This document shows positions 19,645 to 60,800 of a DNA stretch of 64,000 bases, in pieces. The position numbers and the translations under genes were made by a program. Source of the DNA: Auanema rhodensis (taxonomy: Eukaryota > Animalia > Nematoda). Location: contig OZ059896.1 of the NCBI GenBank assembly GCA_964057225.1, forward strand, positions 12,772,001 to 12,836,000. Direction: 5' to 3'. Under the pieces are notes generated by a model. The model saw nothing but the letters and a program-made list of their open reading frames with translations, searched no databases and had not been told where the DNA came from. Position 1 is the first letter of the stretch. Each line of letters opens with the position of its first letter.

Positions 19645-19676
<32 letters not shown>

Positions 19677-34585: not shown

Positions 34586-34656
34586 AGGTTCTACCGAGAT
34601 TTGAACTGGGTCGCAGGATTCAGAGTCCTGAGTGCTAACCACTACACCACGGAACC
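34586..34656 (-). tRNA. tRNA-Gln(CTG) probable pseudogene
   Basis: Inverted copy with a T-stem deletion and an acceptor-stem mismatch. Confidence 0.75.
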
Positions 34657-38430: not shown

Positions 38431-38739
38431 TTCCTTTGTAACTAGATCAAAACACATATGCACAACATATGTGTTAACATGTGGCATAAGTAACAGTTTA
38501 TTTCAGACGACCGCCCACAACGGAGGACAGTCTTACATTTTCAACGTTCGCAGTCAGTGATTTTATTCCGTGCTTGTCTTGTTAATTCATCAATAAACCT
38601 TTTTCTACATATTCGCTTTGCGTTTTACTTCCAACCATACTATACACTTGTGGTATAACGCCACAAACTACAGCACCAAACTTGGATAACTACAATCAGC
38701 TGAGTTCAAACTTCGAGAAAGTTAAAGACAGATTACAGT

Positions 38740-38811
38740 GGTTCCGTGGTGTAGTGGTTTGCACTCAAGACTCTGAATCCTGCGACCCCAGTTCAAATCT
38801 CGGTGGAACCT
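38740..38811 (+). tRNA. tRNA-Gln(CTG) probable pseudogene
   Basis: Substitutions in the D-loop, anticodon stem and T stem. Confidence 0.75.
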
Positions 38812-39616
38812 TCAAGTTTTGCATTTTGTTTTGGCCGATATATGTTTCACACATTCTCTTTAGTTTTTGTCTTGAACTTTGAGTATTCGAAAATAAATAT
38901 TTACTACACTAGCAAGCAGAAGAAAACCTTATACTAGTTCATTGTTTCTTTAAATTTTAAATTTAATTATTTTTTCACTGTCAAATCGGCAAGCACCTGC
39001 TGCACATGTGCGAGCTATTCGAGTGACCGATACCCAAACGAGCCACGCTTAGAAAATGAGGCTGACATAACACGTTTTTCACTCCTACCCAGATTGATTG
39101 CTTTAAAGACATTTCTGTCTTATCTCATTATATTCTCTATTTTGATTTTTCTAAATTTTCATTAATGTATAATTCAAACTGTAATTCCTTGTGATCAGAT
39201 TGTTAATCGTTATATCTGTGAACGTTTCTCGCAAAAAAGTAAGTAGAGTGTTCAGTTGTACCCACTCAACAAAGAAAGTAGAAGAACACATATATTTAGA
39301 GCAAAAAAAGTGCGGAAAAGTCGTTATCTCGTTAACATCAGTTTCACTGCCCAAAACTTTGTTTCTTAATGTCCGAGGTCATATGATGAATTCTAATTTC
39401 GCACTTAGTTGATGAAAATCGAACAAGATTTTTCTCAATTGACCACAACTACAGCACCAAACTTGGATAACTACAATCTGCTGAGTTCAAACTTCGAGAA
39501 AGTTAAAATTTCGAATCTCCTCTCAATCATTTTGTTCCTCCTTCTTTCTGTTTTGTTTTACACAAAAGGGAGGATTGAATCTCATATATGACAATTCTCT
39601 TGTGAGAGATTACAGT

Positions 39617-39688
39617 GGTTCCGTGGTGTAGTGGTTAGCTTTCAGGACTCTGAATGCTGCGACCCGAGCTCAAATCTCGGTGGAACCT
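39617..39688 (+). tRNA. tRNA-Gln(CTG) probable pseudogene
   Basis: D-stem, anticodon-stem and B-box (gctc) changes. Confidence 0.75.
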
Positions 39689-40397
39689 TCAAGTTTTGCA
39701 TGTTGTTTTGGCCGATATATGTTTCACAGATTCTCTTTAGTTTTTGTCTGGAACTTTGAGTCTTCGAAAATGAATATTTACTACACTAGCAAGCAGAAGA
39801 AAACCTTATACTAGTTCATTGTTTCTTTAAATTTTAAATTTAATTATTTTTTCACTGTCAAATCGGCAAGCACCTGCTGCACATGTGCGAGCTATTCGAG
39901 TAACCGATGCCCAAACAAGCCACGTTTAGAAAATAAGGCTGACATAACACGTTTTTTACTCCCACCCAGATTGATTGCTCTAGAGACATTTCTGTCTTTT
40001 CTCATTATATTCTCTACTTTGATTTTTCTAAATTTTCATTAATGTATAATTCAAAATGTAATTTCTTGTGATCAGATTGTTAATCGTTATATCTGTAAAC
40101 GTTTCTCTCGAAATAGCAAGTAGAGTGTTCAGTTGTACCCACTTAACAAAGAAAGTAGAAGAACATATATATTTTGAGCAAAAAAAGTGCGGAAAAGTCG
40201 TTATCTCGTTAACATCAGTTTCACTGCCCAAAACTCTGTTTCTTAATGTCCGAGGTCATATGATGAATTCTAATTCCGCACTTAGTTGATGAAAATCGAA
40301 CAAGATTCTTCTCAATTGACCACAACTACAGCACCAAACTTGGATAACTACAATCAGCTGAGTTCAAACTTCGAGAAAGTTAAAGACAGATTACAGT

Positions 40398-40469
40398 GGT
40401 TCCGTGGTGTAGTGGTTAGCACTCAGGACTCTGAATCCTGCGACCCGAGTTCAAATCTCGGCGGAACCT
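40398..40469 (+). tRNA. tRNA-Gln(CTG), intact
   Basis: All stems pair; A and B boxes intact; TTTT follows. Confidence 0.95.
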
Positions 40470-40731
40470 TTAACTTTTGCATTTTGTTTTGGCCGATATA
40501 TGTTTCACAGATTCTCTTTAGTTTTTGTCTGGAACTTTGAGTATTCGAAAATAAATATTTACTACACTAGCAAGCAGAAGAAAACCTTATACTAGTTCAT
40601 TGTTTCTTTAAATTTTAAATTTAATTATTTTTTCACTGTCAAATCGGCAAGCACCTGCTGCACATGTGCGAGCTATTCGAGTGACCGATGCCCAAACGAG
40701 CCACGCTTAGAAAATGAGGCTGACATAACAC

Positions 40732-43700
40732 TATCCACTCCTCTCATAGATGCGCCGGTACAACTCACTGCCCATGGGGCACCGGATGCGATGATATCCG
40801 ACAGGATACTTTCGTAGCCGAACTACATTCAGCTTACGAAAATCCTGGAAGAACCTACTGCACCAGAGCCGGAGGAGGCCTATTCAACAGCTGTGGACTT
40901 CCTATAGAAGGATGCATTTTATTTAGGCCAACTTATCAGCCCGAAAACGAAGAAGTATACGAAGAAATTAAATGCATACAATGGAAACAGGAAGTGCAAG
41001 CAAAATTATTAATCACATACCTCAATAACACTCACCAATACGATATTTTCCTACAACCCTACCGAAAATATGAGTTTCACGGAATTTCATTACAGATTTC
41101 GTCGGTTACAACAAAAGCAACGACGGAACTATACAACAAAATTTTTCTCACATCTGAGACTAAAAGCTACATGATACCGGAACAAATAAAACCAGCGGTA
41201 ATATGCAGCAATGCACGAATCGCAGCAGATAAGTTTAATGCATGCCACATACAAAAGCCTTGCCCATGTTTGGGGGCCGCAGCGCAGCTCTCTTGCAATT
41301 GCGATTCAGCAACACAAAGAGAACTGAAAAAATATAAACTTCCACAAATTAATACAAATTATAGAATCACAAAAGAAGCAGGAACAATAACTGTTTTATC
41401 ACAAATGGAAGAATCAACGCTCACAATGGAAAACCCGCAATTAAGCATCGAAAGCTTATATACTATTTTATATACTATTACATGTGAAACAAAGGACGAA
41501 CTGAATGCCATTCTGAACTGCGACTCCTTTTCTACTACAATACGATGCTCTGACCAAAATCCCGCCACAACGGTCAAACTATATTTCAATGAACCCAAAG
41601 TACAAGAAAACTGTACTCTGACTTGCGGACGAGCAACAAAATAAATTATACAGCTAAGTACCAGACTACACTACATAAGCGACACTACCATTTTTTCAGA
41701 AGAATCGATCAAACTACATGATGGAACATCCGGACTATCATGGAATCTCCCAAATTTGGAACCGCTTTTCGACGTCATCCATGATAATTGGAAATGGATA
41801 GTACCTGCCGTAGCTGCAATCACTGCAGGTTCATACTTATTATACATAGCAGCCCCATTCCTTACATCATTACTTCTTCCTGCTATACTCTCTTATTGCT
41901 GTGTGAGAAACTCAAACCGCAACCCTCGCCCGGCAATGTCGGCGAATGCCTGACTAGAAATGAAATACAATAATTTAACCTAGAAACATAACTCTTCTGA
42001 AACTCTAAACCATTGTCTAATAACCTTGTAATTGTATCATTAACCTCTTGCGCAACATTCTTAAAGGATATTGAACTTTTATCACCTCTATAGTTTACAT
42101 TGACCTGACCTTTGTATTCAAATATCAAATATCACCTTCAAGCTAAATCATATATAAAGCTCAAGAAACCTTCACTATCACTCTTAATTTAATTCTACCA
42201 CTGAACTTATACCGATCTTATAATAAACCTTTCTCATTTAACTAACTGTTTGGATTCGCCACTAACTCATATTATCCCCATTAACCGGGGAACAACCGAG
42301 TATAGACGCTCGTCATTGGGAACATTAAAAACCCAAATTGGTGCAACGACCAAATCAGGTATTAATTGTTAGAAACTTTCTTATCATATTTTTTCCTTTT
42401 TTTTTCATACTTTCCATCTCACTCTTCTTCACATTTTCCTCCTTTCCATCTCGTTCTCTTCATCAAAAAAAAAAATTTTTTTTTATAAACCAACATACTT
42501 TAAACAGTTGAAACTGTTCATTTTGCAATCATTCTACTAAGAAATTCCAAAATAATCCACTTTCGACCCGAAAAAGAAAAAATGGACCGTATCAAAACGG
42601 TTTTTAATACAAAATTCCAAAATTTCGTTCAAACTTTTGAAAAGAGCCTTTTGGAAAACAAACAAAGTGAGGAGCAGTTCTCTCTTTATTCCGACGTTAA
42701 CAACACTCTTGAACAGCTTCGCTTTCACGAATCTAATTTAAACGGACATCGATCCGCAAAATGTTTAACCATACATAATCCTCAACAGAGGAGAGACATA
42801 ATAAAACAAAAAAAACAGGTGCTGGATTTGTTTCAGTCCTACACACACTAGCACTAAGTGTACCTTTGATAAATGTAAAATATGTAATAGAGATCATCAC
42901 CCATCTCTTTGTCTCCCTCCTGCTTCATCAAAATCATCTAATAAAAAAGCAACAATGGGTATCAATTGCTCTATTTCGCAATCAACTCACACTCCACCTT
43001 CGCCCGCATATCTTATGACTTCTAAAGTATCAATTTTTAACCCCCATACAGGTAAGTTCCACACCAAAATATTGTTTTTCGACCCTGGAGCAACTCAAAG
43101 CTTCATTTACGAGCCGGCAGCCAAAGAATGCCAGCTCAAAACTTTAAATTCCGAATTAATCACAGCAACCGGTTTCTCCGGGAGCTATGAGGCATTTAAT
43201 TCTTTAACGGTCGAAGCAAGTTTAAGAACTCCATTTGGAAAAAAATATCATACTTACGCTCCTCACCTCACCCAAACCTCTCACAGGAAAACTAAAGAGC
43301 TGTCAACTTTCTCTAAAAGACAAAGAAGCTCTAGAACAATCTAATATAACCATTACTAACCAATTGGTGGATGGTGAATTATTCATTCCCGATATTTTGC
43401 TGGGTATGGATTGGTGTGATACAATCATACATGATACCAAACCCACTATACTTCCATCGGGATTGAAAGTCAAACATACCCAGATTGGACCCTGTATTTA
43501 CGGTAAGCAAATACCGAACGATAATATCGCAGCCATAAATACACTTATTGTTAACCCTGTGATACCAGAAGACGTTATGATTAAACAACTTTTTGAAATA
43601 GATAACTTAGGAATTTCTCCACACGAAGGAGCCTTGAACCGATCGGAGCTATTCTTCAATGAATATACTTCTCTAATAAAATTCGACAAGGGTTTTGTTA

Positions 43701-43739: not shown

Positions 43740-44236
43740 CCTTCTTTCTTTTTTGTTTAACACAAAAGGGAGGATTAAATCTCATATATGACAATTCTCT
43801 TTTGAGAAATTACAGTGGTTCCGTGGTGTAGTGGTTAGCATTCAAGACTCTGAGACCTGCGACCCGAGTTCAAATCTCGGCGGAACCTTCAAGTTTTGCA
43901 TTTTGGTTTGGCCGATATATGTTTCACACATTCTCTTTAGTTTTTGTCTTGAACTTTGAGTATTCGAAAATAAATATTTACTACACTAGCAAGCAGAAAA
44001 AAACCTTATACTAGTTCATTGTTTCTTTAAATTTTAAATTTAATTATTTTTTCACTGTCAAATCGGCAAGCACCTGCTGCACATGTGCGAGCTATTCGAG
44101 TGACCGATGCCCAAACGAGCCACGCTTAGAAAATGAGGCTGACATAACACGTTTTTCACTCCTACCCAGATTGATTGCTTCAAAGACATTTCTGTCTTAT
44201 CTCATTATATTCTCTATTTTGATTTTTCTAAATTTT
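43740..44236 (+). repeat. Partial tRNA-Gln repeat unit
   Basis: Matches the repeat unit. Confidence 0.9.
43817..43888 (+). tRNA. tRNA-Gln(CTG) probable pseudogene
   Basis: Anticodon arm disrupted. Confidence 0.72.
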
Positions 44237-44244: not shown

Positions 44245-45103
44245 AAAAAAAACTTCATTTATAATTGAATTATCTCTTTTAATATTGATAGTTGTAATTT
44301 CTTTGAAGGGTGAACATTTAATCATGAATACATCTTTTGAACACTTGATCGGTATCCATGTTTCTTTAGATGACATACAAGAAAACAATGCAGATGCACC
44401 CTGCCCACAGGAATAACATCCGGAGAGACTGATCAATAAAGGACGACAAGGTATATCATAGGAAAATGTATTACTGTCATATAAAAGTTCAGAATCAATT
44501 GAAACTGTAGTTTCATCAGACTGAGTTCGAAAAGTTAAGGATGTATCGGGTTTATAGATTGTTTCCGTATTTGCCATATAGGGAGTAAAATATGAGAAAA
44601 ATGTGTGAAATTATGTTGTGGACATATACAGCCAGCAACATCATTATTGATTTTGTTACAAGTACAATCGATAACCGTTGTACATCTTGAAAAATTGTCG
44701 GAAGTGTCTGCCTTCGAAATACATTGTACCATAAATGGAAAATGTGGTTCAACAGCAAAGATTTGATTGTTTGAAGCAACAAAATAATAATTATGAAGTG
44801 GAGTAGGAGGTTTGTCTTGTGTATTGATCGTCATATTGAAAAAAGAGTAATTCATTTTCAAATATGGTGGAATTGTGATGTTATAAATATTTTTATCTTT
44901 AACAATATGTGTTGTAATTTCAAAAGTTGAAGATGTTGTCCAATCTTCACATTTAAACACTTCAAATATGTCGTCTGAAGTAGGTACATGTTCTAATTTG
45001 TAGAAAAGACAAGGGTTTTCCCAAAATGTCAAACAACACCATATATGTGCTGAAGACCGGACACATTTGGATTGTGTTGTAATATCCTTGATTTGGATAT
45101 TAA
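44245..45103 (-). pseudogene. env: BEL/Pao phlebovirus Gc-like env fragment (H), related to G env
   Basis: PCLFYKLEH..FKC.DW, LSGCYSCGQGA, VFMIKCSP. Confidence 0.82.
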
Positions 45104-45479
45104 TGTTCCATGTTATTGACCCTTAGATTGATGTGTTGTAAAAGAAACAATAAGATTTGAGGAAGAGAGAAAGATTTATTGTAAATAAAAAAACATTTAA
45201 ACAATAAACAAATAAAGATAAAGATAAGTCCGCCAACTGAAGATTCAGTTGAATGGCAAACTTATATAGCGAATGTTATCAGCATTTTCCACGAAAGGTT
45301 ATAAGTTGTCAATGACAATTATAACTATCTCAGAAAATGCTGAGGCTGCAAAATATAACTGATAACATAATACACTAAAACAAGAAACTAGAATTATAAA
45401 ATATAAAATATAAAACACAGAATAAAGAAATACATAAAAATTATAGAAAGAATAAAGTAAAGAATTATAAAGTATAACA
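45104..45479 (-). repeat. 3' LTR of element E (TGTTAT...GGAACA)
   Basis: Ends resemble the family termini; TATATAA and AATAAA on the minus strand. The partner LTR is outside the window. Confidence 0.75.
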
Positions 45480-46366
45480 TGCTACCGCTCTTCAAGTCCT
45501 GTGTCCTCACAGGTATGCATAAGGTTTCCAAAATTTTCATAATGTTGCAGCAAGCTTTTTGATGAGATCCTTATGTACTTTTCTCATCTTTCCTTGACTC
45601 ATTTCCAATTCCACATATGAGTTGTATACGCCTGTAATTTTGAACGGTCCATTATAAGTGGGTCACAATCAGCCGTGAACCGTCATATCCTTCAATAGTA
45701 CCATTTCACCTATTTCAAATGTACGTGATGCTATTCGGTTACTATTATTCAACCGATTTTGTTGTTCAATTGATTTTAATTGAATTTTTTCTTGAATAGA
45801 ATCCCAGGTATTTTTCCGATTTTCATTTCTTTCCAATAATTCGTCATCTTCAGGAGAATTTAGATGAGGTTGTCCTGGTAATTGACGGTCCATAGGTAGT
45901 CGTGCGTCTCTTCCAAAAAGAGCAATGTATGGGCTGATTCCGGTAGTTGTACTTGGGATTGTATTTAATGCGAATGTGATTTTAGGTAATTGTGAGGCCC
46001 ATTGAGAGACACGGTTTTTAGCACAAGTGGATAAACATTCCTGGATGGTTCGATGTGGTCGTTCCACTTGACCATTTGTATTTTTGTGATATGGCAGAGA
46101 GAAGGTTTGTACAATTCCAAATTTGTTGCACATTAACTTGAATTCTTTAGATATAAAATTTCCTCCATTGTCAGACACGATGCTCACTGGTGGTCCAAAA
46201 ATGAAGACGAAATTCGTCAGGAACTTTCGGACTGTTTCTTCGGCATTCTGTGTGCGTTAAGGTATGCTCTTTATCCATTTCGAAAAAGTATCTTGAATAG
46301 AAAGAATATATTTAAATCCATTAGTGCTAGGGGAAAAAGGTCCTGTCACATCCATATGAATCCTAT

Positions 46367-46703
46367 CGTTCCATTCGGAAATCAATACGTAGCAGGCGGG
46401 TTAGAATCAGACGACATGAGGCTGAGAGAGGACGACACGCCCTTCATATGGAACACAGACTTCAGCTTTGCCTTATGGAATGACTATGGATGGTTGGTCT
46501 TCCTTTCTTAGCTCTCTTTCACTTTATATCTTTATGTAGACTTATATAACTTATTGTAATCATGTAGACATAATAAACCTTTCTTTCTCGAGTCTTATGT
46601 TTATCCATTATGCTCTTTATCTACCGCTACATCTGGAATACTATCACACTCATCTTGTAGGCTTTATTGGTCTATAGGATCGACGTGAGAGCATAACGGA
46701 ACG
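46367..46703 (+). repeat. 5' LTR of element D (CGTTCC...GGAACG)
   Basis: No differences seen versus 57494-57830. Confidence 0.97.
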
Positions 46704-46722
46704 TGGAGGTTCCACCTCGAAC
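46704..46722 (+). promoter_or_regulatory. PBS of element D (tRNA-Gln)
   Basis: TGGAGGTTCCACC-TCGAAC directly after the LTR. Confidence 0.9.
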
Positions 46723-48113
46723 ATTTTTATCTTGATTTCTTGACTATTTTCTCTTATATTTCTTTATTTTCAATACAATTCATTGAATCTGAATTCTCTT
46801 ATATCTCTAAACCATCTACTCCATGTCTTAACACAATACGGTGGGGCCAACAACGTTTAAAAGGGAACAGATGCAAGGACCACTCCTTTTGGAGATGGAT
46901 ATTTTATATTTTTTGAAACTGAAGTTACGTTTTCCCGTTTGTTCACAATTTTCTGTCTGTCTGAACCCAACAATTTTTATATCCTTGCTGTTAACATCGA
47001 ATACTCTGTTACCCGAACTCGAAGCATTTTTGAGGACCCTAGGATGAATTAGTGAACAAATTCACCCAAGGATAATTTTTTTTTGAGATTTATGCCCACA
47101 CTTTCTTCTTTTAAGGATTGATTTTGGCTTCGAGGAAAGAATAGCCACGGTTATTTCTTTGTTTTTGTGGATGAAACAATTTTGCGCACCAAATTGAGAT
47201 TATTTCATATTTTGCGATCAGGACTATTTTATTTTGCGTTACATTTCTGTTCAGACAACTTTTTGCCATTAACATCCAAAAATATTTTGATAACACATTG
47301 AATTTGCACGGGAAACCTCACCTAAATGGGAGGAATATTATGAAAAGTGAATTTTAAGATCGCTATAGTCCGAAAAATCCTGTACAATTTTACGAACTGA
47401 ATTATTATTAGTGATTGTCTATCAGGTCGTGTTGGCTTAAGCATATCAGTTTGGATTTTCTCCCCTTACTATATGTCACCTTCCTCATACCGTTATTGTT
47501 GTTTTGAAGCATAAGACTCATTCCTAAACACCATAATTCTTTAAATATAGTTATTGTAATCTTTAGTCATCTATTCCTAGCCATAATTTTAAAACTAGAT
47601 TTCTGATCATGATGGGACTACGGTACTCATTCGTTTTCCAAATTGCTTCCTTAAAGAGTAATGCTATTACGAATGTACATTATGAAAACCGCTAAAATCC
47701 TTTGAACATTTACCAAAGTCCATTTTCGTGGCATTTTCGATCACTCGTGAGTCCAAAAAGATCAGAATCGTCAGAAAAAGAAAAAAAAATGGGAATAAGG
47801 ACTAATGAGATTGCTCAGGCATCAATCAAGTGAGCACTGAACATTTTTGAACATATACAAACTGGTTGAATTATATACATTTAAGAATATTAAATTGGGA
47901 AGCGAACAAAGTCCAAATTTTCATACGGTAGTAGGCGGATCTCTGTTGATGGCCACAACTTAGATTCATTCCTCAACGCCGTTATACAAACCAGTTACTC
48001 ACAGCTTTCTCACCCCTTTTCCAAAACTCCTTATCCATAACATTCATTAACGTCTCAAAATCCCCCACGTTACTAAACACTCAAGGTTTTTCCAAACCAA
48101 GAGCGCTACCAAA

Positions 48114-51100
48114 GTGGATAAGCGATTCCGATCAGCTGTACCTCTCAGTACACGAACTGATTTTGATCTGCGAGACTCAGCTCCACTCACCAGAAGCCGA
48201 GCTCGCGCACAAAGCATCGCTATAATCGAAGACGAGCAGAAAGCCGAGCACAAAACCGACAAATTCTTTACTCCTCGTGCAGGCACTTATTCACCTACTG
48301 AACGATTAAGCGACGAGGATTGCGTACCACCAGGAGGAGAAGAAACATCCGTCATAGTGGAAGAACAAACACCAGTTACTGCTAAAAAGGTACGCTCCTC
48401 TACTTCAAATAAAAAGAAGAAAAAAAAAAATAAAAACTCAAGCAAATCGGACGCATCTCTCTCTCTGTCCATCCCTGAACCAACAGTTTCACCTTCAGTA
48501 GCCACTACTAGTGCAGGCGGTTTACAAACTTTTAAAAACATAGTTTCTGATCTCTTCAATCGTTCACCAAAAGATCGAAACTTGAACACCAGCCACACGA
48601 ACAGATACTCGTCGGTTCCAAACATTAATTTATCTCCCATACAACCACCCGAACATACACATCTTGCTATTACTGATAACCAAACTTCAACCCCAATTTT
48701 ACCAAATACAACAACAGGAAGTTCAAAAGCACCAAACCAACCCAGCCGCTCAGTACACACAACCCCTGTATCTGAGAACTCATTAACAACAGGCAGAGTG
48801 ATAAAAATGCCATCTGCCCGTACAAGTAATATGGCAACTGAACCCTCTTTACCTGGGGCAGGGAAAACTACCATAGCGCAAGCCTTGTTATCACCCTACT
48901 GCCCAACTTATGATGGCAGTCGCAACTTTCGAGATTTCACGGCTAAATTCAACCTATTTGCCAACGCTGTAGGTCTGGTAATCCCGGAGAGATTAGCCCT
49001 TCTACCTTTGCTTCTTAAAAACGAAGCAGCGGAAGAAGCGTACAGGCAAGTACCTGAACAATTAAAAACCACCGGTTCATGGAATGACCTGTTAAGAGCT
49101 TTAACATCTAAGCTTTGTCCTGAATATAATCAGGATCCAGCGCTGATCAATCTCCAAAATACAACCCAAGGTGATCTGACAATTGACGCTTACGCTCAAT
49201 CACTGAGAACGATTGCACTAAGCGCTTTTTCCACGGATGACCCTCACAAAGATCACATATTAAGATCAACTTTTCTTAGAGGACTGAAAAATACTCTGAA
49301 ACCAGCTGTGATTCGAGCGAAGCCAAAATCCTTCACGGATGCGATTGAGGCCGCTCGCTGGGAAGAATCGGTAATGAACCAGACAACAGACACGCAGTCC
49401 ATGCTAGTCAATGCTGTAAACAAAGCACTAGCTCCTTTCGCGCGCACAAACGAGAGACGAGATAACCGAAATTTCGACCGTAATTATCCACGTGATAACC
49501 AAAACAATAAAAATTATCATAATTATCAAAATTATCAGAAAAATAAAAACTTTTCAAAATATAATAACAACCAAAATCGTAACGGCTCTTTTGCTAATTA
49601 TCGCCGTAACAATAATTATGAACGAAATTCGGGACGATTTAATAACAACTGGCATTCAAACAATTTTAATCCTTCAAACAATAATAGAAGAGGAAGGACT
49701 AATGAACATAACGGACAAAGAAGAGTCCATTTTAACAATCAAAGAGATCAATCAAGAGGACGAGATAGAAGCACACCACGAATTAACTCTGTGACCCTTT
49801 CACCGTTATCACTAACGGTTGTAATGGCAATCACAGTAGCAATTCTCCTGCCATGTGTAACTTCATATCAAATTTGCACAAAAGCAACTGGAGGAGCCTT
49901 ATTAGTTCCACCAGTAGTAAAGAAATGTAAATTAACAGAAACAAATCATGTGCTACGTACACAAATCCATCTATACACGCGAAACCACACGGCACACGAG
50001 TGGGACGCGTGGCGCTGCTCGAAGGAAGTACACAAGCTGTGTGTACGCGATTTGTTATTCCTCCGCGACACAAACAGAACAATCGATAGGGTGCAGCCTA
50101 TAGCGGCGCACGAGTGCAGGCAGGCGATTCGCGATCGCAAATGGAATAACATGGAGCTGGAGAGAATCGATAGTATAGCACAAGCAACCCCAGAGCCCTC
50201 CTATGATCCGGCGCGCGCGTTTAGCCGCGACGAGTGCGAGGAGAGGCCGCGTTTAGTACTAGAGCGCGGAGTCATGACCCGCATGCCCGATGATACAATA
50301 TTATCCAATTTAATACTAAACACTGAAGGTTGTAGTGCTCATCATGGTAATTGCAAATCAAATACATCAATAATTATATGGGATCCCCAAACATCGGATT
50401 CCCGTTGTAATTATATCGATATGCATTACTACGATGCTATAATAAGCAAAGAAACCATTTTGATTCCAAGTACACAATCAGCGCTTATCCTTTCGAGTAA
50501 AATAACACCAAAACCAATTGCATCCTGCTTTAGACAACCAGCATTCCATACAACATCAGGAAATTATATAACGTTCCCCAAATATCCTAATGATAACAAT
50601 ATCACACTCCTAATTGAACGAGAATTTGAGAAATTGCCGTTCAAAAGACCTAAACGCGCAACTTCTACAAAATGCTCATTCCCATTCGATCAGGATAGAA
50701 TAAATGAAGTTGAAGATTTTGAAACGTACACGCTTCGAATTTGCCCATATCCATTTTTAAGACCACTTATGAGTAATCCAGGAATTACACAAATTATTCC
50801 TCTAATTAAAGGAAGACGTATGGTAGACCCTACATATTCCTTGAAAGAATGGATAATAGCCCATCGTGAAAATTTTGAATTTTTCTTTAAAATTCAAATT
50901 TATGAGAAATCTTTAAGACATTTTCTCAAACAATATGATTTCCGTGATAAAGACGAAGCCATTTTACAATATGTTGCTCAAAGAGAATTAGCTTTAGCTA
51001 CTAAAGCTGGAATATCTTATTTAACATCCAGGCAACTTCTTCAACAAATATCAGATCGTTTGACCGTTATTGAATTTGATCGGTTAATTCGTACAAAAGA

Positions 51101-54100
51101 AGGCACTTATCGAGAGCGTGCTGAAACTATTGCTCTTGATTTAGCCAATACACCAGTTATAATTGAAGACAAATTAACAGTTCCATCAAGACAAGAAATA
51201 TTAAAAGCATTCGTAAAAATGCCACCAATAAGGAAACAATTATTAACTGATCAAGAAGAAAGAAACAGTAAATTTATAAAAGATACAATTGACCTTGTAC
51301 ATGAGCTAAAAACTCTCGTTACGCTTAGAAGAAATAAAACAGCAGCTGATATTGATAACATAAAATTTATAAACCTTCCATCTTCACGAATGTTTGTACT
51401 TGATACTGATAAATTGTTCTATGACATCAAGAATAATTTTGGAATACCAATTGGACCACATCCCAAGCTCATAGAGCCCAACAACATCTCTAAGGACTTA
51501 TTATTGGAAATATTTTTACCACTACTAAACGATAATACTTTGCCTAATACATCTAGTAGAATATCATCAGAACAGTTAAAAAGATTAATGACAGAGAAAA
51601 TCCAACTTAAATCGTTGCAAACCACGACGCGTGCGCCAAGCAACGCGGCAGGCGGCGCGGCCGAGATGGCAGCCCTCTCTATAATCGATCGTGAGGCGCT
51701 GATCACAACAGATCCCGCAATACTGCCGCAAACATCTACAAGCCCTCGGGCAGCCGCAGCAACTACCGCGCGCGCGCCTTCATCGATGGCCCAGCCCGAA
51801 ACAACGGCGCGCCATACAACCGCAACGACAACCGCGCGCGCAACAATATCGACCCGCGCGCCGCCAACTACTATTCTCTACGCTGTTTATCAAGATCAAC
51901 AAATTCCAATAATGGAAGAAACAACATATACACCAATATCCTTGATTCGTAAACATAGAGCATCATCAACACCTACAGCCACCGATATAGAGTCTGTACA
52001 GGCTAATGCTCAATACATTGCCACAAAAATTGACTCCGAACAACAGTTTCGCCAAAACATAACAAGCAGAATTGCACAAGATCATTTGCAATATGCTACA
52101 ACTATGATTCAAGAAGAACTGCAGAAACATTTTAAAGAGTCATACGAATCAATATGTGAGATCCAAAATAGGTATCTTGAATTATGGAGATCAATTTTAC
52201 AAATTGAACCAACAATAGCTATGCGTACAATACTGGGAAGAGAAGATATAGCCGCAAGATTTGTAGGCAGCGAGATATTACATATACATGTTTGCCCGGT
52301 AGTATTACAAAAGACTATATATCACAATCACACCGTGAATGGCACATGTTATCTCGAAACCCCAGTATTAACACAAGAAGGACAATTACTGTTTGCCGCA
52401 CCAGGATCGAAAGACCTATTACCTCATGGTAAAGAAATTAACTGTGATCACGTACCAACAGACGTATGGTCAACAGACGGTGAATGGAAAGGAATTAATG
52501 GTACTGTAGACGTCAGTCTCATATCCATGTGGGACGGACTTCATCATGAAAAGATCACACCATTAAAATTCACCGGAGCACACTTATACACCAACTTATC
52601 ATCTCGAGTGTACTCAATGACAACAGCCATTGCTTATGGTGCTAGTTTAGCATCGATTCGTCAAAATCACGTGCTTCACACAATTCATCATGATCCAAAA
52701 ATATCATCAGCATTCAGCATATTGAAGAAAAGTAGTGATTACATCTCCAAAGCCAATGAATTCACCAAAAGTACATGGAATTCTTTTGTCGATACAATAG
52801 CAGGAACGATTGAACGAACACTCATCACTATTGGAGCAATTACAATTATTGTAGTTATACTGATCGTACTAGCCTTTGTTGCGAAAATATATTTCTTCAA
52901 ACCAATAGGCATGCAAGTTATGCATATCGAACTCCGAGATCAAACCAACGATCTTCCCACATATGAAGAAACATTAGAGCTAGTAAGTCAACCTGATCAG
53001 CCAATACCAAGGAACATAATGAAACAGTACTATCCATCGTTTCTCACTTTAGTTCCACTAGCTATGCCCATAGTATGTTCAGTTTCCAATCGCAAAGACC
53101 AATCTCTACCACTGCTATTGATGACTGTTAACGATAGACTAATCCTAACTCTTTGGGATTCAGGATCATCGATTAGTTATATCAGACTCTCGACATTACA
53201 TTACTTAACTTTGAATGATTTTGTAAAAAAGGATAAATCAGTTGCAACGACAGCAAACGGATCAGCATTTCGATTTCTGGGAACAATTGATTTAACCGTA
53301 GAAATCGCTGGATATGAAATAGATCATACATTCTTCATTTCAAGAGATGAAGACTGTCCATCACCAGCATTAATTGGATTAGATTTTATGAAAACACTCG
53401 ATCGTCAAAATATCGGTATGAAACTTCGACCATTCAAACAAACGTTAGAAATCGGAAACCGCGTAGTACCGTTAGCCAATGGAAATAACGGGAATATCAG
53501 AAAAACATCATTTGTCATTAATTTGATAAATTTAAGTCCACAATGTATCTTTCCTCATCAGACCTGTAGAATACCAGTAAGGTTAGCTGAACCCATATCA
53601 CACAACGAAGTCGCCATGCTACAACCCGATGAAGAAAAGACGATATCTACCACCTACGAAACAGCATTTCGAGACGTCAATTCAATTACCATGACATTCA
53701 AAAACAACACTGATCATCCTATAGATCTATCACCCGGAAACATTATTGACAAAGCAAAAATAGGCGTACTGCCACAATACGAGATCTTTACGACCGAACA
53801 CAATCCAGACTATATACCACCCGAAGCGGATTGGGAAAATAAATTACCTCATTTTCCTCAGGATTTTATGAACGATCTTGATTTAAAAGACGCCGACCTA
53901 ACTAAAGAACAAAAAGATCTTCTTCAGCTTTGTATTCTACGTAATAGAGATGCATTTTTAAATGAGGATAAACAAATAGGACTATTTAAAGGACCTGTAG
54001 AGCATTCAATACCTCTAAGAACAGATATGGACATGCCTAGACCGCGTATAACGCGTATCCCTATAGGCAAACAAGAAGAAGTCGAAAGACAGGTACAGGA

Positions 54101-56798
54101 GATGCTGAAGCAAAATATAATTGAACCATCCACATCTCTTTTCAATAGCCCTGTAGTTTTAGTCAAAAAGAAAGATGAAACATTCCGTTTCGTAACCGAT
54201 TTCCGTGCTCTAAATAACGTCACTCGCAAGCAAACGTACATCATACCTAACATCTCTGACATTGTCGATATGGCAGCCGGATCACAATATTTTTCTAACT
54301 TTGATTTAGTATCCGGATTCTTCCAAATAGCATTAAAGAAATCAGATCGACCATTAACAGCATTTACAACAAACACCGGTACTTATCAATATAGAAGGAT
54401 GCCTATGGGGTTATGTGGAGCGCCACATACCTTTCAAACAGCAGTACGATACCTTCAAAGCCGATGTAAATGCCGACTCTTTGTTTATTTGGATGATTTA
54501 CTCGTTATATCAGACACTGCAGAACAACATCTTGACGATATAGCTGAGATTCTCAGAGAAGTAAAGAAATTAGGCATGAAAATAAAACTCAAGAAATGCG
54601 CTTTTGCAAGACCTGAAGTAAAATTTCTTGGTTTAATTGTCGGAAGAGATGGGGTCAAACCAGATCCACAGAAAGTATCCGCCATTCAAGACTATCCTGC
54701 TCCAAAGTCACCTACAGGAGTAAGAGCATTTTTGGGAATGGTAGGATTCTTTCGGAAATTTATTAAGGATTTTGCACACATCGCAAGCCCTTTATACGAC
54801 CTTACAAAACTTGATGTGGAATTTCAATGGAATGACAGAAGTCAACAAGCTGTTGATACACTAAAAAGAAAATTGATCCAAGCACCGGTCTTAAAACCAC
54901 CAAGATCAGACCGTATGTTCATTATAGAAAGTGACGGTAGTAATATCGCAGTGGGAGCAGTGTTATTACAACCTGAAGATCCCAATGAACCACTCAAAAA
55001 TTTACATCCAATTGCATTTGCAAGCCGTAAACTTGTAAAAGCAGAACGTAACTATGCTCCTATTGAAATAGAAGCGTTAGGACTCGTATACGCTTTAGCT
55101 CAGTTTCGAACATATATACTTGGATCACATACAATCTGTATCACAGACCATCGACCATTAACAAGCTTATTGACTCGTAGAGACCTTTTTGGAAGACTAG
55201 CAAAATTTCAATTAGTCATACAGGAATACGATATCGAGATAAGATACCGAGAAGGCAGACTAAACAAAGTCTGTGATGCTCTCTCACGATACATTGGAGA
55301 TGAAGCAAACGATCCTAAACCGGAAAAGAAAAAGAAAACAAAAGAAATTCCGAAAGCTCAAATTAATTTCGTTAATGTACCTGACATTAGAGCAATTCAA
55401 GAGGATACACCTTGGATAAAGAGAACTATCGCCGAAATAGAATACAGAACGAAAAAGAACATGCTTTCTAATGATCGTTATTGTGTTATTGACAACATGT
55501 TATACACAAAACCAAGCAGAAAACGACCACACCCAGCTTTGATTTTACCAAGGGAAAGCGAACTTATCAACAAGGTTATCGAAGAATTTCACGAAGACCC
55601 AGCAATTGGAGCACATCAAGGAATTAACAAAACTAAAGAAGCCATACTACGAAGATTCTGCTGGACAAATATGCAAACGGACATAGCAATTTTTGTGAAA
55701 CAATGCGTTAAATGCGCACAAAGGAAGAAAGATCCTCACGCTATGACCGTTCAGCCTATGGGTCAATTTGAAATACCATCAAAACCATTTGAGAGAATAC
55801 ATATGGATATTATGGGACCATTCCCTACTTCAAAAAGAAACAACAATTATGTCCTAACAATACAAGATTCATTCTCCAAATGGGCGACAACCATCGCTAT
55901 ACCAACAATTGTCACCGATGTCATCATTGATAGATTCCTCAGGAATTTCGTATATATTTTTGGACCACCAAATCGTTTAATAACCGATCGTGGATCTAAT
56001 TTTGTATCAAAGAAATTTGAAGAAATGTGTGAAAAACTTGGCATTAAACACGAGCCAACACTCCCACATCAGAAAAACTCCAATGGACAAGTCGAAAGAC
56101 TACACAGAACGCTAGAAGAAGGATTAACACACTATCTCAACGAAGACGTAACTGATTGGGACATGTATTTACCAAAAATTACTTTTGCGTTAAATACAAT
56201 AACACACGCAACCACAGGAATCTCTCCATACATAGCATTATTCGGAAAAGAAAGTCGTATGAGATTAGACAAAGAATTATTCCCCGAGACATTACAACCA
56301 GAGATCTTGGAAGAAATTGAGAATACCGAATATATCAGAGGAGAAAGAAGAACCATCATTCAAGAAAATCTTGCAAAACATCAAGAAACCGCGAAGAGAA
56401 AACATGATGGACGACAACGAATAGAAGAAAGAGATATCCGAAAAGGAGACCAAGTTATGTTAGCAATTAAAGCGCATAAACCAGGTCAAAAGCTTCGCAA
56501 ATCATATGATGGACCATTTGAAGTCATCAACGTTGAAGGAAACATGGTACAACTCAAGAATCCATTTGGAAAAATTCAAGACGTACACAAAGACAATCTC
56601 AAACTTTTTGAACGCAAAATGGACCATACAATCGCTCAAAACACGCGATCCAATACAACGACTTATGACACGGACGACGACAGCGATATTGAGATCATAA
56701 AAGTCATAAATGGTAACGATAACTATGACTCTACTGAAGAAACAGAACCAGAAGACCCATCGGACCAAAATTGGCTACCACCAAGAAGAAGACGATGA
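48114..56798 (+). CDS. Single polyprotein Gag-signal-Env(gB-like)-TM-PR-RT-RNaseH-IN; true start codon unknown
   Basis: Capsid-like region; signal 49806-49865; KRPKR at 50643; gB-like core 52077-52457; TM 52821-52883; LWDSG at 53151; YLDD at 54486; HHCC/DDE; GPF. Confidence 0.95.
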   Translation: MDKRFRSAVPLSTRTDFDLRDSAPLTRSRARAQSIAIIEDEQKAEHKTDKFFTPRAGTYSPTERLSDEDCVPPGGEETSVIVEEQTPVTAKKVRSSTSNKKKKKKNKNSSKSDASLSLSIPEPTVSPSVATTSAGGLQTFKNIVSDLFNRSPKDRNLNTSHTNRYSSVPNINLSPIQPPEHTHLAITDNQTSTPILPNTTTGSSKAPNQPSRSVHTTPVSENSLTTGRVIKMPSARTSNMATEPSLPGAGKTTIAQALLSPYCPTYDGSRNFRDFTAKFNLFANAVGLVIPERLALLPLLLKNEAAEEAYRQVPEQLKTTGSWNDLLRALTSKLCPEYNQDPALINLQNTTQGDLTIDAYAQSLRTIALSAFSTDDPHKDHILRSTFLRGLKNTLKPAVIRAKPKSFTDAIEAARWEESVMNQTTDTQSMLVNAVNKALAPFARTNERRDNRNFDRNYPRDNQNNKNYHNYQNYQKNKNFSKYNNNQNRNGSFANYRRNNNYERNSGRFNNNWHSNNFNPSNNNRRGRTNEHNGQRRVHFNNQRDQSRGRDRSTPRINSVTLSPLSLTVVMAITVAILLPCVTSYQICTKATGGALLVPPVVKKCKLTETNHVLRTQIHLYTRNHTAHEWDAWRCSKEVHKLCVRDLLFLRDTNRTIDRVQPIAAHECRQAIRDRKWNNMELERIDSIAQATPEPSYDPARAFSRDECEERPRLVLERGVMTRMPDDTILSNLILNTEGCSAHHGNCKSNTSIIIWDPQTSDSRCNYIDMHYYDAIISKETILIPSTQSALILSSKITPKPIASCFRQPAFHTTSGNYITFPKYPNDNNITLLIEREFEKLPFKRPKRATSTKCSFPFDQDRINEVEDFETYTLRICPYPFLRPLMSNPGITQIIPLIKGRRMVDPTYSLKEWIIAHRENFEFFFKIQIYEKSLRHFLKQYDFRDKDEAILQYVAQRELALATKAGISYLTSRQLLQQISDRLTVIEFDRLIRTKEGTYRERAETIALDLANTPVIIEDKLTVPSRQEILKAFVKMPPIRKQLLTDQEERNSKFIKDTIDLVHELKTLVTLRRNKTAADIDNIKFINLPSSRMFVLDTDKLFYDIKNNFGIPIGPHPKLIEPNNISKDLLLEIFLPLLNDNTLPNTSSRISSEQLKRLMTEKIQLKSLQTTTRAPSNAAGGAAEMAALSIIDREALITTDPAILPQTSTSPRAAAATTARAPSSMAQPETTARHTTATTTARATISTRAPPTTILYAVYQDQQIPIMEETTYTPISLIRKHRASSTPTATDIESVQANAQYIATKIDSEQQFRQNITSRIAQDHLQYATTMIQEELQKHFKESYESICEIQNRYLELWRSILQIEPTIAMRTILGREDIAARFVGSEILHIHVCPVVLQKTIYHNHTVNGTCYLETPVLTQEGQLLFAAPGSKDLLPHGKEINCDHVPTDVWSTDGEWKGINGTVDVSLISMWDGLHHEKITPLKFTGAHLYTNLSSRVYSMTTAIAYGASLASIRQNHVLHTIHHDPKISSAFSILKKSSDYISKANEFTKSTWNSFVDTIAGTIERTLITIGAITIIVVILIVLAFVAKIYFFKPIGMQVMHIELRDQTNDLPTYEETLELVSQPDQPIPRNIMKQYYPSFLTLVPLAMPIVCSVSNRKDQSLPLLLMTVNDRLILTLWDSGSSISYIRLSTLHYLTLNDFVKKDKSVATTANGSAFRFLGTIDLTVEIAGYEIDHTFFISRDEDCPSPALIGLDFMKTLDRQNIGMKLRPFKQTLEIGNRVVPLANGNNGNIRKTSFVINLINLSPQCIFPHQTCRIPVRLAEPISHNEVAMLQPDEEKTISTTYETAFRDVNSITMTFKNNTDHPIDLSPGNIIDKAKIGVLPQYEIFTTEHNPDYIPPEADWENKLPHFPQDFMNDLDLKDADLTKEQKDLLQLCILRNRDAFLNEDKQIGLFKGPVEHSIPLRTDMDMPRPRITRIPIGKQEEVERQVQEMLKQNIIEPSTSLFNSPVVLVKKKDETFRFVTDFRALNNVTRKQTYIIPNISDIVDMAAGSQYFSNFDLVSGFFQIALKKSDRPLTAFTTNTGTYQYRRMPMGLCGAPHTFQTAVRYLQSRCKCRLFVYLDDLLVISDTAEQHLDDIAEILREVKKLGMKIKLKKCAFARPEVKFLGLIVGRDGVKPDPQKVSAIQDYPAPKSPTGVRAFLGMVGFFRKFIKDFAHIASPLYDLTKLDVEFQWNDRSQQAVDTLKRKLIQAPVLKPPRSDRMFIIESDGSNIAVGAVLLQPEDPNEPLKNLHPIAFASRKLVKAERNYAPIEIEALGLVYALAQFRTYILGSHTICITDHRPLTSLLTRRDLFGRLAKFQLVIQEYDIEIRYREGRLNKVCDALSRYIGDEANDPKPEKKKKTKEIPKAQINFVNVPDIRAIQEDTPWIKRTIAEIEYRTKKNMLSNDRYCVIDNMLYTKPSRKRPHPALILPRESELINKVIEEFHEDPAIGAHQGINKTKEAILRRFCWTNMQTDIAIFVKQCVKCAQRKKDPHAMTVQPMGQFEIPSKPFERIHMDIMGPFPTSKRNNNYVLTIQDSFSKWATTIAIPTIVTDVIIDRFLRNFVYIFGPPNRLITDRGSNFVSKKFEEMCEKLGIKHEPTLPHQKNSNGQVERLHRTLEEGLTHYLNEDVTDWDMYLPKITFALNTITHATTGISPYIALFGKESRMRLDKELFPETLQPEILEEIENTEYIRGERRTIIQENLAKHQETAKRKHDGRQRIEERDIRKGDQVMLAIKAHKPGQKLRKSYDGPFEVINVEGNMVQLKNPFGKIQDVHKDNLKLFERKMDHTIAQNTRSNTTTYDTDDDSDIEIIKVINGNDNYDSTEETEPEDPSDQNWLPPRRRR

Positions 56799-57493
56799 AA
56801 GAAATAATTTCGAGATTGATAAAATTATTGTAAAACCTTGTATCAACTCTCTTTTAAAAAACCAGAGCTATTCATATTATTATATCATTGAAAAACTTGA
56901 GTAAGACGAGATGTAAGCTAATAATCAAAAAGCATTTCAGTTTCAAAGCATATATAATTATAAAACTTCATCAATTTCAAATAATTTCCCGTAAATAACG
57001 AAGAAATGAAAGATAAGAGACATTATATTGCATATTCATCTGAGCAACAGTCCTTATCAAGTAGTTAATGATTCAATTCCGGAAATTATATGGGATTTAG
57101 TTTAATTTTTTTTATTATTACAATTCGCTTTGAATACGCTGAAGAAACATGCTAGCTCCATCGATAATATAGCATGACTCTCGTTTCTCTATACTCAAAC
57201 AAGTTAGACATGAAGCGTCGTGCCTAAAAAGCTATTTTGCGCACTCTCGCTGACAAAATATAGCCTTGGTATTCTAAAAGATTGTTTTATTACTTAATAT
57301 TCATGTATTTTCAAATAATTTTTATTGAATTCTTTTCAGATACTATTGTTTAACATTATATTGTAATTTATCTTTACTATTTTTATGTTAACATTGTAAT
57401 TTTTATTTTTAAAACTAAACCTTCTGCTACGATTGAAACAAGCCACATATTTTGCTATTCGCGGGGACGCGACATAAACTCGAAAAAATGGCA

Positions 57494-57830
57494 CGTTCCA
57501 TTCGGAAATCAATACGTAGCAGGCGGGTTAGAATCAGACGACATGAGGCTGAGAGAGGACGACACGCCCTTCATATGGAACACAGACTTCAGCTTTGCCT
57601 TATGGAATGACTATGGATGGTTGGTCTTCCTTTCTTAGCTCTCTTTCACTTTATATCTTTATGTAGACTTATATAACTTATTGTAATCATGTAGACATAA
57701 TAAACCTTTCTTTCTCGAGTCTTATGTTTATCCATTATGCTCTTTATCTACCGCTACATCTGGAATACTATCACACTCATCTTGTAGGCTTTATTGGTCT
57801 ATAGGATCGACGTGAGAGCATAACGGAACG
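57494..57830 (+). repeat. 3' LTR of element D
   Basis: Identical to the 5' LTR; preceded by GAAAAAATGGCA. Confidence 0.97.
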
Positions 57831-60800
57831 CTATCAAATAGTTTTTGTGGGGTAACAAACTTTCCATATGGTTCTCTCGTTGTATCATGTTGATTTATTT
57901 TCCTTTTTGCGCATGTCAGGCATTGGCTGACGATCTCTTTCGCATCTTCCATCATATTTGTCCAATGGAATCTTCTTGATAATGCTGCATGTGTTCTTTT
58001 GATTCCTTGATGCGCTCCAATTCTTGCGTCTTCATGAAAAAGTTTCACAAGTACTTGATTCAATGTCTTTTGTTTTAGAATCATAATCCTTGGAGTAAGA
58101 TATTGTTTGTTAGGTCGAGCATGCAAAACTCCGTCGATAACAATATATCTATCGCTATTAATCTGTTTAGGTTGTTCCGTTAACATATCAGCAATAGTTT
58201 CCTTAATCCATGGTGTTCCTTGTTGTAACTGAATTAGTTTGTCGGTATCCAGAATTTCCACATTGGTTACATTTATGAGATAGTTGATAGTTTCTTGGAT
58301 ATCCGTTAAACTTGTTGTTGGCGTTGTCTTCTGTAGCTTCGGTTTAGGACCATCGTTAGCTTCGTTGCCTATGTATCTGGATAGTGCATCACATACACTA
58401 TTCATACGTCCTGGACGGTACATAATCACAATATCATATTCCTGAATCATTAACTGATGTTTCGCTAGTCTTCCAATAAGATCTCTTCTACTCATTAGAC
58501 TGGTTAGTGGTCGATGATCCGTTATTAGCTTAGTTGACGTGCCTAAAACATATGTGCGAAATTGTTGTAATGCGTAGACGAGTGCCAAAGCTTCTAATTC
58601 GATAGGTGGGTATTTTCTTTCTGTAGGTGAGAGCTTCCTACTTGCGAACGCAACAGGGTGTAATCCATTGCCTGTGTCTTGTAGTAAGACTGCTCCAATT
58701 GCAATAGTACTAGCGTCACTTTCAATAACAAAAGGTGCTCCATTTGTTGGTGGCTTCAGAACTGGTGCTGTGCATAGAGCTTTCTTGAGAGTCTCGAATG
58801 CTTTTTCACGTTCTTCCGTCCATTCGAAATCTTGATCCTTGTGTGTGAGTTGATACAACGGTTCGGCTATTTTGGCGTAGTCTCTGATGAATCGCCGAAA
58901 ATAATTTGTCATTCCAAGGAATGAACGAATAGCGGTGACCGTTTTAGGAGTTGGAAATTTCTTAACGGCTGTAATTTTTGATGGATCAGGTTGTATTCCA
59001 TCACGACCAATTATAAATCCAAGAAATTTAACTTGTATAGCTGCAAATTTGCATTTACTTAGTTTTGCTTTCATTCCTAATCCTTGTAAAGCTTGTAACA
59101 CTTCTTCTATATCCTCCAGATGTTGTTCGGCTGTGTTTGATATAATGAGTAGGTCATCCAGATAAACAAAAAGTCGACATTTTACTTGATTTTGCAAATA
59201 GCGAACAGCTGATTGAAATGTATGTGGAGCTCCACAGAGACCCATCGGGATTCTGCAATATTGATAAACTCCTGATGAGGTCACAAATGCAGTGAGGTGA
59301 CGGTCTTCTTCACGTAAAGGAATTTGAAAAAATCCCGATACGAGATCGATGTTTGTGAAGTATCGAGCTCCTGCAGTGCTGTCGATTATTTCTGGTATAT
59401 GAGGAATAGAATAAGTCTGTTTCTGTGTGACACTATTGAGTGTACGGAAGTCCGTTACAAAGCGGAATGAGTTGTCTTTCTTCTTGACTAAGACGACTGG
59501 ACTTGTAAAACTTGATATTGATGTTTCTATTACTCCTTGGTCCAGCATTTCTTTTACTTGACGTTCAACTTCATCCTGTTTACCCAAAGGAACTCGATAT
59601 GATCGAGATTTGGGCAGGTCCATATCGGTTCTCAAAGTGATTGAATGTTCTATTGGTCCTTTGAATAATCCAATGTTCCGATCTTCGTTAAAAAAAGCAT
59701 TTTTGAATCTTCTCAACATAGTTTTGAGATTTTGACGTTGATTTTTAGATAGATCCGTTGATTCGAATTTTAAGTTATCGAAAGGATTCTTCTCAAAAAT
59801 AGGCAATTTATCTGACCAATCAGCTTCTGATGGAATATAGTCCGGTATATGTGGGATTCCCATTTCTTCTGCTATTTTTCCTTTTCCAATAATAGTGTTT
59901 CCTGTTAACTTCACCTTATAATTTGCTGTATTGATGGCAAATATTGTGAGTGGTGAAGTCTTGATAGCAGTAGGTGTGAATTGAATAGGTCCATTTCCAC
60001 ATCGTATAAGAGCGTATTGTTTTGGTTGTAGTTCTTTTGCCAATTGTAGACGAATCATAGCTTTAGTTCGGGGTGGAATAATAGATTCTCTAATGTTTAT
60101 AATGGACACGGTGTCTGAACTGATGCGAAAGCTCTTTTGGTTAGCGGATAATAATGGTAGAAAATGGTTTCCAACTATTAATTGCTTGCGTAAAGCTTGT
60201 AGAGAAGTTGTTATTCCTTTTTCTTCTAATGCTTTCATGATGTCCAAACCAAGTAACATTTCAGTAGGACAATGTTTATCCTCAGAGATTAAAAATGTGT
60301 GTGAAAGATGGTATCCAGCAATAACAATGTCCAACGTTATTGTACCCAGAAAGTTGAATATTGATCCATTTGCTGCGGTAGCAGAGATTTTAGTTGAGTT
60401 GAAATTCTCTTTTCTTAAATAGCGTACTGATGATTCCTTCAAATATGAAACAGATGCTCCGCTATCCCATAAAGCTACGAGTCTTCTGCCTTCTGCTTCA
60501 ATTCTTATATATGGGAGTTCTCTTTTGTTCGTTGCACAGCATCCAACAAAAGGTATAATAATAGGAATAAAAGTGATGACAGTAGGAAAATATCTTCGAA
60601 TAGTTTCGTCGTCGGCTGGAACATTGATGTCAGCGTTGAGTAGTTCGTGTTGTTCAACTGCATTCACATTTAAGATAGGAACTTTCTCTTTGATATAAGA
60701 TACAACAATAATGTATAATGCTGATCCAAAGATTAATATAACTATCATAACACCTGCAGAGATAAACATTCTGTTGAGGGATCCAACAAAGAAATCAACT

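Follow-up and report, generated by a model that had tools for sequence, protein, structure and literature searches.

In the sections of Chary and Hayashi (eLife 2026; PMC13524379) on which we draw, elements of Nematoda, Bryozoa and Platyhelminthes carry only an envelope (ENV) of the herpes simplex virus glycoprotein B (HSV/gB) type and have the order GAG-ENV-POL; the nematode "ancient errantiviruses" among them combine a Ty3/gypsy pol with a gB-type ENV flanked by a signal or transmembrane (TM) segment (here and below, statements on published work rest on parts of the papers cited). We describe an element with the same order in a 64,000-nucleotide (nt) stretch of Auanema rhodensis DNA (contig OZ059896.1; "the window"). 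It is very likely an intact, recently inserted Ty3/gypsy (Metaviridae) GAG-ENV-POL element, whose single frame encodes a polyprotein predicted to cross the membrane twice, with a class III fusion envelope in mid-chain. A first-pass annotation had raised the architecture as possibly novel, a claim that fails because PMC13524379 describes nematode GAG-ENV-POL elements with gB-type ENV. The catalogued layout is no discovery; what sets the element apart is an unmatched helical insert in Env, an AUG-less N terminus and a spliced-type derivative, and the insert, possibly a new fold, is what could matter.

The NERV elements of Sacco et al. 2022 are said to have a continuous gag-env-pro-pol open reading frame (ORF) and an env resembling that of Nyamiviridae. 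PMC13524379 cites Sacco 2022 for the flipped ENV/POL order in nematodes; its supplement 1 holds 36 nematode elements, none from Auanema, its supplement 6 reports Auanema genomes as screened, with ENV-POL hits, and some supplement names read GAG-ENV-POL_RT. Its main text mentions neither single-frame continuity nor a polyprotein or frameshift, nor, figures being outside this scope, a mucin stretch, linker or additional domain, and the "extra domain" comments of its supplement 4 concern two branchiopod elements and none of the four nematode representatives. Among the literature searched, the gag-env-pol layout is treated only in PMC13524379, no "Burro" elements with an envelope were found, and the insert, AUG-less start and skipped derivative were not found described (figures and Sacco 2022 lying outside this search).

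Other long-chain elements differ in design. Caenorhabditis elegans Cer1, singled out at first pass for comparison, also lacks a stop between gag and pol, but its extra ORF (CERV) lies after pol and it has no envelope (PMC10309623); here the envelope precedes pol, and no 3' ORF of at least 150 codons exists. Atlas virus resembles our element in its single Gag-Pol-Env polyprotein and identical long terminal repeats (LTRs), and Tas in an env that is weakly gB-like, but these Belpaoviridae have a BEL/Pao pol, and the Atlas env comes last and is class II (PMC9094657). We find neither the BEL/Pao-type Gag and reverse transcriptase (RT) nor the env after pol of that family; instead, as in the GAG-ENV-POL errantiviruses and NERV, env lies between gag and pol, the gB-type ectodomain lies between signal and TM, and the RT groups with nematode env-first elements.

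A single gag-env-pol frame and its relatives

What is shown directly for this element is its reading frame and the order of domains in it, the LTRs with their target duplication, the primer site, the placement of its RT and the fold that is predicted. The stop-to-stop frame (48051-56798, plus strand) spans 2915 codons with no internal stop, bearing out the earlier claim of one uninterrupted gag-env-pol frame; the 2894 codons then reported had been counted from the GTG at 48114. It encodes, in order, gag, signal, ectodomain, TM, protease (PR), RT, RNase H (RH) and integrase (IN), and its first ATG, at 48807, gives a 2663-amino-acid (aa) product. The parts are as follows, with aa numbered along the long frame and A, B and E denoting sister copies in the window.

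46363-46366 (+), second copy 57831-57834: target-site duplication CTAT, in the integrase of sister E (minus strand)
46367-46703 (+): 5' LTR, 337 nt, termini CGTTCC...GGAACG
46704-46716 (+): primer-binding site, 13 nt complementary to the 3' end of tRNA-Gln(CUG)+CCA
46717-48050 (+): 5' leader; blocks 47027-47093 and 47414-47532 kept in sister A at 71-74% at the nt level
48051-48806 (+): AUG-less N-terminal extension, 252 codons, the first 90 being 49% identical to sister A
48390-56523 (+): GT..AG-bounded skipped part, 8134 nt, absent from contigs of four of four sequencing runs
48888-49781 (+): Gag, with capsid (aa 280-450) and an Asn/Arg-rich nucleocapsid-like region without CCHC knuckle
49797-49865 (+): internal signal sequence (aa 583-605), with basic residues and an INSV protease-like motif upstream; predicted cleavage after CVTS
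49866-50657 (+): Env N-terminal fusion module, class III domains I/II by prediction, 10 Cys, ending in RPKR (furin-like, 50646-50657)
50658-51620 (+): inserted all-helical domain (aa 870-1190)
51621-51959 (+): mucin-like stretch rich in Thr, Ala and Pro (109 aa with 23 T, 22 A, 10 P and 8 S), then RKHR
51960-52814 (+): Env C-terminal part, central helix and crown, gB domain III/IV-like
52815-53120 (+): TM helix (aa 1589-1612) and tail of ~80 aa with LPTY
53121-56798 (+): Pol, with protease (WDSG), RT (YLDD), RNase H, integrase (HHCC, core, GPF), acidic tail and stop
56799-57493 (+): 3' untranslated region, no frame of at least 150 codons, weak purine tract before the LTR
57494-57830 (+): 3' LTR, identical to the 5' LTR

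Pfam families on the long frame comprise Retrotrans_gag (aa 322-413), Monjiviricetes_fusion (aa 1346-1605, E 6.8e-13, above the family cut-off), Glycoprotein_B (aa 1343-1426, E 2.5e-8, below its cut-off), aspartyl protease (1691-1781), RT (2038-2196), RNase H (2260-2393) and integrase (2503-2673). The pol order PR-RT-RH-IN with a gypsy-type RT, seen in both Pfam and the tree below, is that of Ty3/gypsy, and the best PDB sequence match is Ty3 Gag-Pol, obtained with a profile that also contained the relatives' pol, which swamped the search. Kyte-Doolittle hydropathy (window 19) has two strong hydrophobic segments only, with peaks at aa 586 (2.34) and 1592 (3.18), a third at aa 304 being weak (1.57). 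The ectodomain between the two is ~983 aa long, in agreement with the ~985 aa proposed earlier, but its 16 Cys, described then as Cys-rich, make up only 1.6%, and about half of it is an insert unlike gB that had been overlooked.

The paired LTRs are identical at 337/337 nt, as first noted, their termini forming an inverted hexamer unlike TG...CA, and the duplication that flanks them is 4 bp long; the element is nested in the integrase of sister E. Its primer site adjoins the 5' LTR directly, with 13-nt pairing where sister B pairs at 18/18 positions, and a 12-mer of the site is identical to that of Clat_errantivirus_4 and Ctro_errantivirus_1 (Gln; Caenorhabditis) in supplement 1 of PMC13524379. 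In each of the three 5' LTRs at 8744-9110, 46367-46703 and 14518-14936, ACG is the end that directly adjoins the primer site, and CG is the start of two of them; the gypsy LTR family of the window departs from the usual TG...CA termini. The two conserved leader blocks are likely cis-acting RNA signals; Rfam gave no match on 46000-58200.

Sisters A, B and E repeat the gag-env-pol order (tblastn), as first reported, but stops or frameshifts interrupt each of them and the RT-RH-IN part of sister A was not found within the window; they therefore back the order and not the single-frame continuity. Two Env word searches had a sole match, protein P0003 of Auanema sp. JU1783, which shares the gag-env-PR chain and the 474-aa linker and is 46-51% identical to the element's Env over two aligned stretches. 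An RT/RH search among long proteins gave 273 matches, 120 of them listed; among the matches listed, the ten at 54-61% RT/RH identity are all from Caenorhabditis or Diploscapter and carry PF24664 and/or PF00606, and these closest polyproteins have env before PR. The Caenorhabditis/Diploscapter proteins P0012-P0018, P0023, P0027 and P0028 share the chain order and, like P0003, are unannotated gene models.

In the RT phylogeny proposed at first pass the element falls, along with both B and E, into a rhabditid clade of 13 rows (support 99/98), nested in a 20-row clade (100/99) of named nematode proteins and one unnamed, including those of Meloidogyne enterolobii and Panagrolaimus davidi. This placement points to a rhabditid nematode as the likely host. 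Its 48 rows were chosen from the 120 with long RT/RH matches (P0087 was dropped for short coverage), and the named sequences of PMC13524379 and Sacco et al. 2022 are not among them. HMMER found 272 Env relatives, 150 of them listed. The order is indeed a family design, as had been claimed, with env preceding pol in 51 of 56 stored chains that have both the Env C-terminal part (envC) and RT, in a set picked by likeness to the element that misses BEL-type RTs and rests on gene models.

Envelope fold, insert and topology

The ectodomain model, built from a 23-row alignment, has an N-module rich in beta structure, a central helix of 75 residues and a beta crown, with a mean predicted local distance difference test (pLDDT) of 63 and N- and C-parts mostly at 80-95. 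The PDB rows listed by Foldseek are herpes gB chains (best E 1.3e-10), and the best BFVD matches are nyami-, rhabdo-like and chu-like glycoproteins and gB, with Nyavirus G at rank 3. VIA comparison gave Z 11.9 against herpes gB (root-mean-square deviation, rmsd, 9.0; 390 aligned; model 1-884), Z 9.0 against Mokola virus G (rmsd 5.8; 188 aligned; model 25-244) and, for the N-terminal module, Z 8.7 against Chandipura G. Independently of the model, phmmer on the central helix ranks gB chains first, although weakly (E 0.0014). A class III arrangement of fusion module, central helix and crown is thus supported by modelling, and the gB-like fold and rhabdovirus-G-like N terminus first suggested hold at the level of prediction. 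By eye, the eight-cysteine pattern of domains I-II matches that of Clat_4 in the Nematoda_C1 alignment, although bridges of the cysteine-bridge classes C1a and C1d are not legible in the model. The likeness to herpes gB and rhabdovirus G lies in the predicted fold (gB Z up to 11.9), whereas sequence identity is 13-16%, and the present protein differs further in being coded inside a retroelement polyprotein and in having a folded domain at the gB cleavage-loop position.

That insert separates the N-module from the central helix by 474 aa, against a median of 31 aa in 107 well-anchored homologues, whose linkers range from near zero to 486 aa and reach at least 400 aa in only three. It consists, in order, of RPKR, the helical domain (aa 870-1190), the Thr/Ala/Pro-rich stretch and RKHR. 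Modelled alone, the helical domain reaches pLDDT 82.4 and a predicted template modelling score (pTM) of 0.81. Searches of Pfam, and of BFVD at E<=0.001, found no match for it; its best Z is 3.3 among 993 PDB chains compared with VIA, and none of 48,161 PDB representatives is at Z>=5 (best 3.6), where by the VIA guide mostly helical models typically reach Z ~14. The chain at Z 3.6, a death domain aligned over 64 residues, was rejected as chance, and the best ESM Atlas value for the insert (0.87) is a lead only. The model may represent a new fold, lack of a structural match being no proof of one.

Of 269 proteins, 16 have a detectable helical domain, with four named Caenorhabditis species represented among them; identity of the domain is 54% with sister A and 41% with the Auanema protein; P0015, P0016, P0023, P0027 and P0028 have shorter versions. 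P0012-P0014 differ in having 62-85-aa linkers and no helical domain, which shows that the whole family does not need it. P0039, P0040, P0043, P0148, P0220 and others are env-first with long Ser/Thr-rich linkers that lack the helical domain, and the presence of such linkers in many relatives indicates that mucin-like expansion of the Env loop is recurrent.

Helical domain and mucin stretch together are probably an attachment or shielding cap. Alternatively, they might be a spacer, variable and dispensable, or else serve as a propeptide or assist folding, as the variable linker length (<100 aa in 72 of the 107 homologues) and the close relatives without the domain would allow; we consider this less likely, since the helical part folds confidently and has been kept in sister A, in the Auanema protein and in the other proteins that carry it. 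All 11 insert-bearing proteins whose chain takes in the N-terminal Env part (envN) have R-x-K/R-R directly after it, but of 12 with envC only 5 have the second basic site, R-x-x-R, which weighs against the overall reading set out below. A fuller reading, which we offer as speculative, would combine a rhabditid attachment or shielding module in a class III fusogen (a helical domain, possibly of a new fold, and a mucin stalk, both set in the gB cleavage loop, which furin exposes) with a non-AUG start and a spliced, reverse-transcribed satellite. If true, Env would be a one-protein equivalent of herpes gB and its receptor-binding partners, the folded, lineage-variable cleavage-loop domain being a soluble candidate for cell finding without gD/gH/gL; the helical domain can be expressed and solved on its own.

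The signal-plus-TM design first proposed recurs in homologues. Of 54 homologue junctions, 50 have a signal-like hydrophobic stretch ahead of Env and 42 a net positive charge upstream of that stretch; of 73 homologues, 68 have a TM between Env and PR, and in 64 the charge after the TM is net positive. An [IVL]Nx[VILA] motif lies ahead of the signal in 21 of 54 homologues (background 7.7%), and [IVL]Nx[VIL] occurs in 41 of 73 Env tails (20.5% when shuffled). We take motifs of this type to be Ty3/gypsy protease cleavage motifs. The pattern of signal, TM and charge fits a cytosol-lumen-cytosol model, in which translocation would take place as follows. Translation would start at a non-AUG codon near 48060 and Gag would be made in the cytosol; the internal signal (aa 583-605) would thread Env into the endoplasmic reticulum, signal peptidase would free the Env N terminus, and the viral protease would likely trim Gag at INSV. 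The TM (aa 1589-1612) would stop transfer, leaving Pol cytosolic and tethered to the Env tail until released by the protease. A furin-like enzyme of the Golgi would likely cut RPKR, after which the helical domain and mucin stretch would head the membrane-anchored subunit, or be freed if RKHR were also cut. Capsids would bud at Env-bearing membranes and pass, tRNA-Gln-primed, to neighbouring (germ) cells, and a spliced short RNA would likely be co-mobilised as a non-autonomous copy. Synthesis of the parts at 1:1:1, as first suggested, and infectivity are possible.

Several points weigh against this overall reading of the element. The full ectodomain model has a pTM of 0.37 and its gB matches an rmsd of 7-9 A; gag-pol-env chains supplied 3 of the 54 "gag-env" junctions; the polyproteins taken from databases are gene models, which may hide introns or frameshifts; and two sequencing runs, whose RNA label is a guess, cover the coding interior in patches only. 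Env could also be kept mainly as a membrane tether for intracellular assembly of Gag and Pol, the element staying in its cell. PMC13524379 states that how gB-type errantiviruses enter cells is unknown and that herpes gB needs partner glycoproteins, and any late-type motif is found in only 14 of 73 Env tails. A TM alone would suffice as a tether, however, and the 983-aa ectodomain keeps its fusion module, cysteines and furin-like site across lineages at 20-60% identity, which makes this alternative improbable. Late-domain-like motifs comprise [LP]PxY in 6 and P[ST]AP in 9 of the 73 tails, the combined 14 comparing with 4.7% when shuffled; being enriched but not general, they were rejected as a family trait. 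In the element itself the motif is LPTY (52962-52973 region, aa ~1638-1641), and sister A and the Auanema protein have PPxY.

Translation start and skipped derivative

No ATG occurs in the first 252 codons of the long frame (48051-48806), and we lean towards non-AUG initiation, with a candidate ATC at 48060 that is common to the element and sister A and lies at the start of the conserved block. Of the first 30 codons aligned with sister A, 11 are unchanged, 9 changed synonymously and 10 non-synonymously, and third codon positions change most (13 vs 8 and 5); the extension reads as conserved and coding. The competing possibility, to which we give a smaller chance, is that translation starts at the AUG at 48807, or at one on an unseen upstream exon, the upstream frame not being a non-AUG extension. 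The AUG at 48807 has an A at -3 and lies just ahead of the capsid, sister B has its own Met before the capsid, and sister A, being degraded, could have lost its AUG; these facts count against non-AUG initiation. Sister A, however, has Leu at the position equivalent to 48807 and no Met until residue 390, past the capsid start at 362. Neither copy shares an AG splice acceptor near the frame start, 9 of 19 changed codons among the first 30 are synonymous, and none of the nine indels listed across four sequencing runs falls in the long frame.

Contigs of all four runs (two guessed to be DNA, two RNA) contain a joint 48389/56524 that skips 8134 nt with GT..AG ends, calling into question the earlier claim that no splicing is involved. 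The presence of this form in both DNA runs implies that it exists as DNA. Coverage in the RNA-guessed runs is continuous over the 5' and 3' parts but patchy over the interior; four runs guessed to be RNA contain 16-17% of the sequence words. We think it probable that the skipped form is a reverse-transcribed spliced RNA; Cer1 also makes a spliced RNA that joins 5' and 3' parts (CERV; PMC10309623). An ordinary internal deletion by RT template switching at the AAG microhomology is the less favoured explanation, although it would account for the existence of the form in DNA and for the 3-nt microhomology at the joint. Also counting against splicing, the acceptor TTTGAAG does not follow the nematode consensus TTTCAG, and neither sister B nor sister E conserves the +1 frame past the joint (58 codons). 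Yet GT..AG ends are expected in only ~0.6-0.7% of random deletions (four cut positions), and sister A has the donor AAG|GTAC at its corresponding position; the donor falls exactly between codons. The LTR has a different 3' flank in both DNA runs, which indicates at least one further insertion; contig depth is no measure of copy number. With the AUG-less start, the spliced-type derivative offers a testable handle on how protein ratios are controlled in a one-frame Gag-Env-Pol virus.

Other elements in the window

Sister B (14518-28396, +) has LTRs that are 97.9% identical (TGTTAC...GGAACG), a duplication AGTT and an 18/18 primer site. It contains an internal duplication with two different envC-PR segments (~19900-21950 and 22300-23770) and, after pol, an extra 224-codon frame (27139-27813) with no Pfam match; a further LTR copy lies at 9456-9883.

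Seven complete tRNA-Gln(CUG) genes lie in the window, and the same tRNA primes the gypsy elements here. A repeat unit of ~780-880 bp with tRNA-Gln(CUG) genes has left dispersed remains at 1-1747, 12983-13883, 33259-34767, 38661-40742 and 43740-44236; a preprint on Auanema rhodense reports, in the part drawn on here, 19,554 tRNA loci and tRNA arrays in germline-restricted DNA. Three 400-nt copies of a BEL-type LTR (12582-12981, 13890-14289 and 41939-42338) are 97.5-99% identical to the first; one adjoins a tRNA-Gln gene a few bases upstream of the gene start and another follows a tRNA gene truncated after 20 nt. Targeting of tRNA genes was considered and is unsupported for the gypsy element, which sits inside another element's integrase. 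A BEL LTR adjoins a tRNA gene in one case but not in another.

Phlebovirus G2-like (class II) envelope frames occur at 35263-37482 and 40724-41644 (+) and at 44535-45122 (-), and likely belong to BEL/Pao (Atlas/Cer13-like) elements; with the gB-like frames they bring two envelope classes into one retroelement nest. Remains of a non-LTR retrotransposon, with endonuclease and RT frames, occupy 29389-31826 (-).

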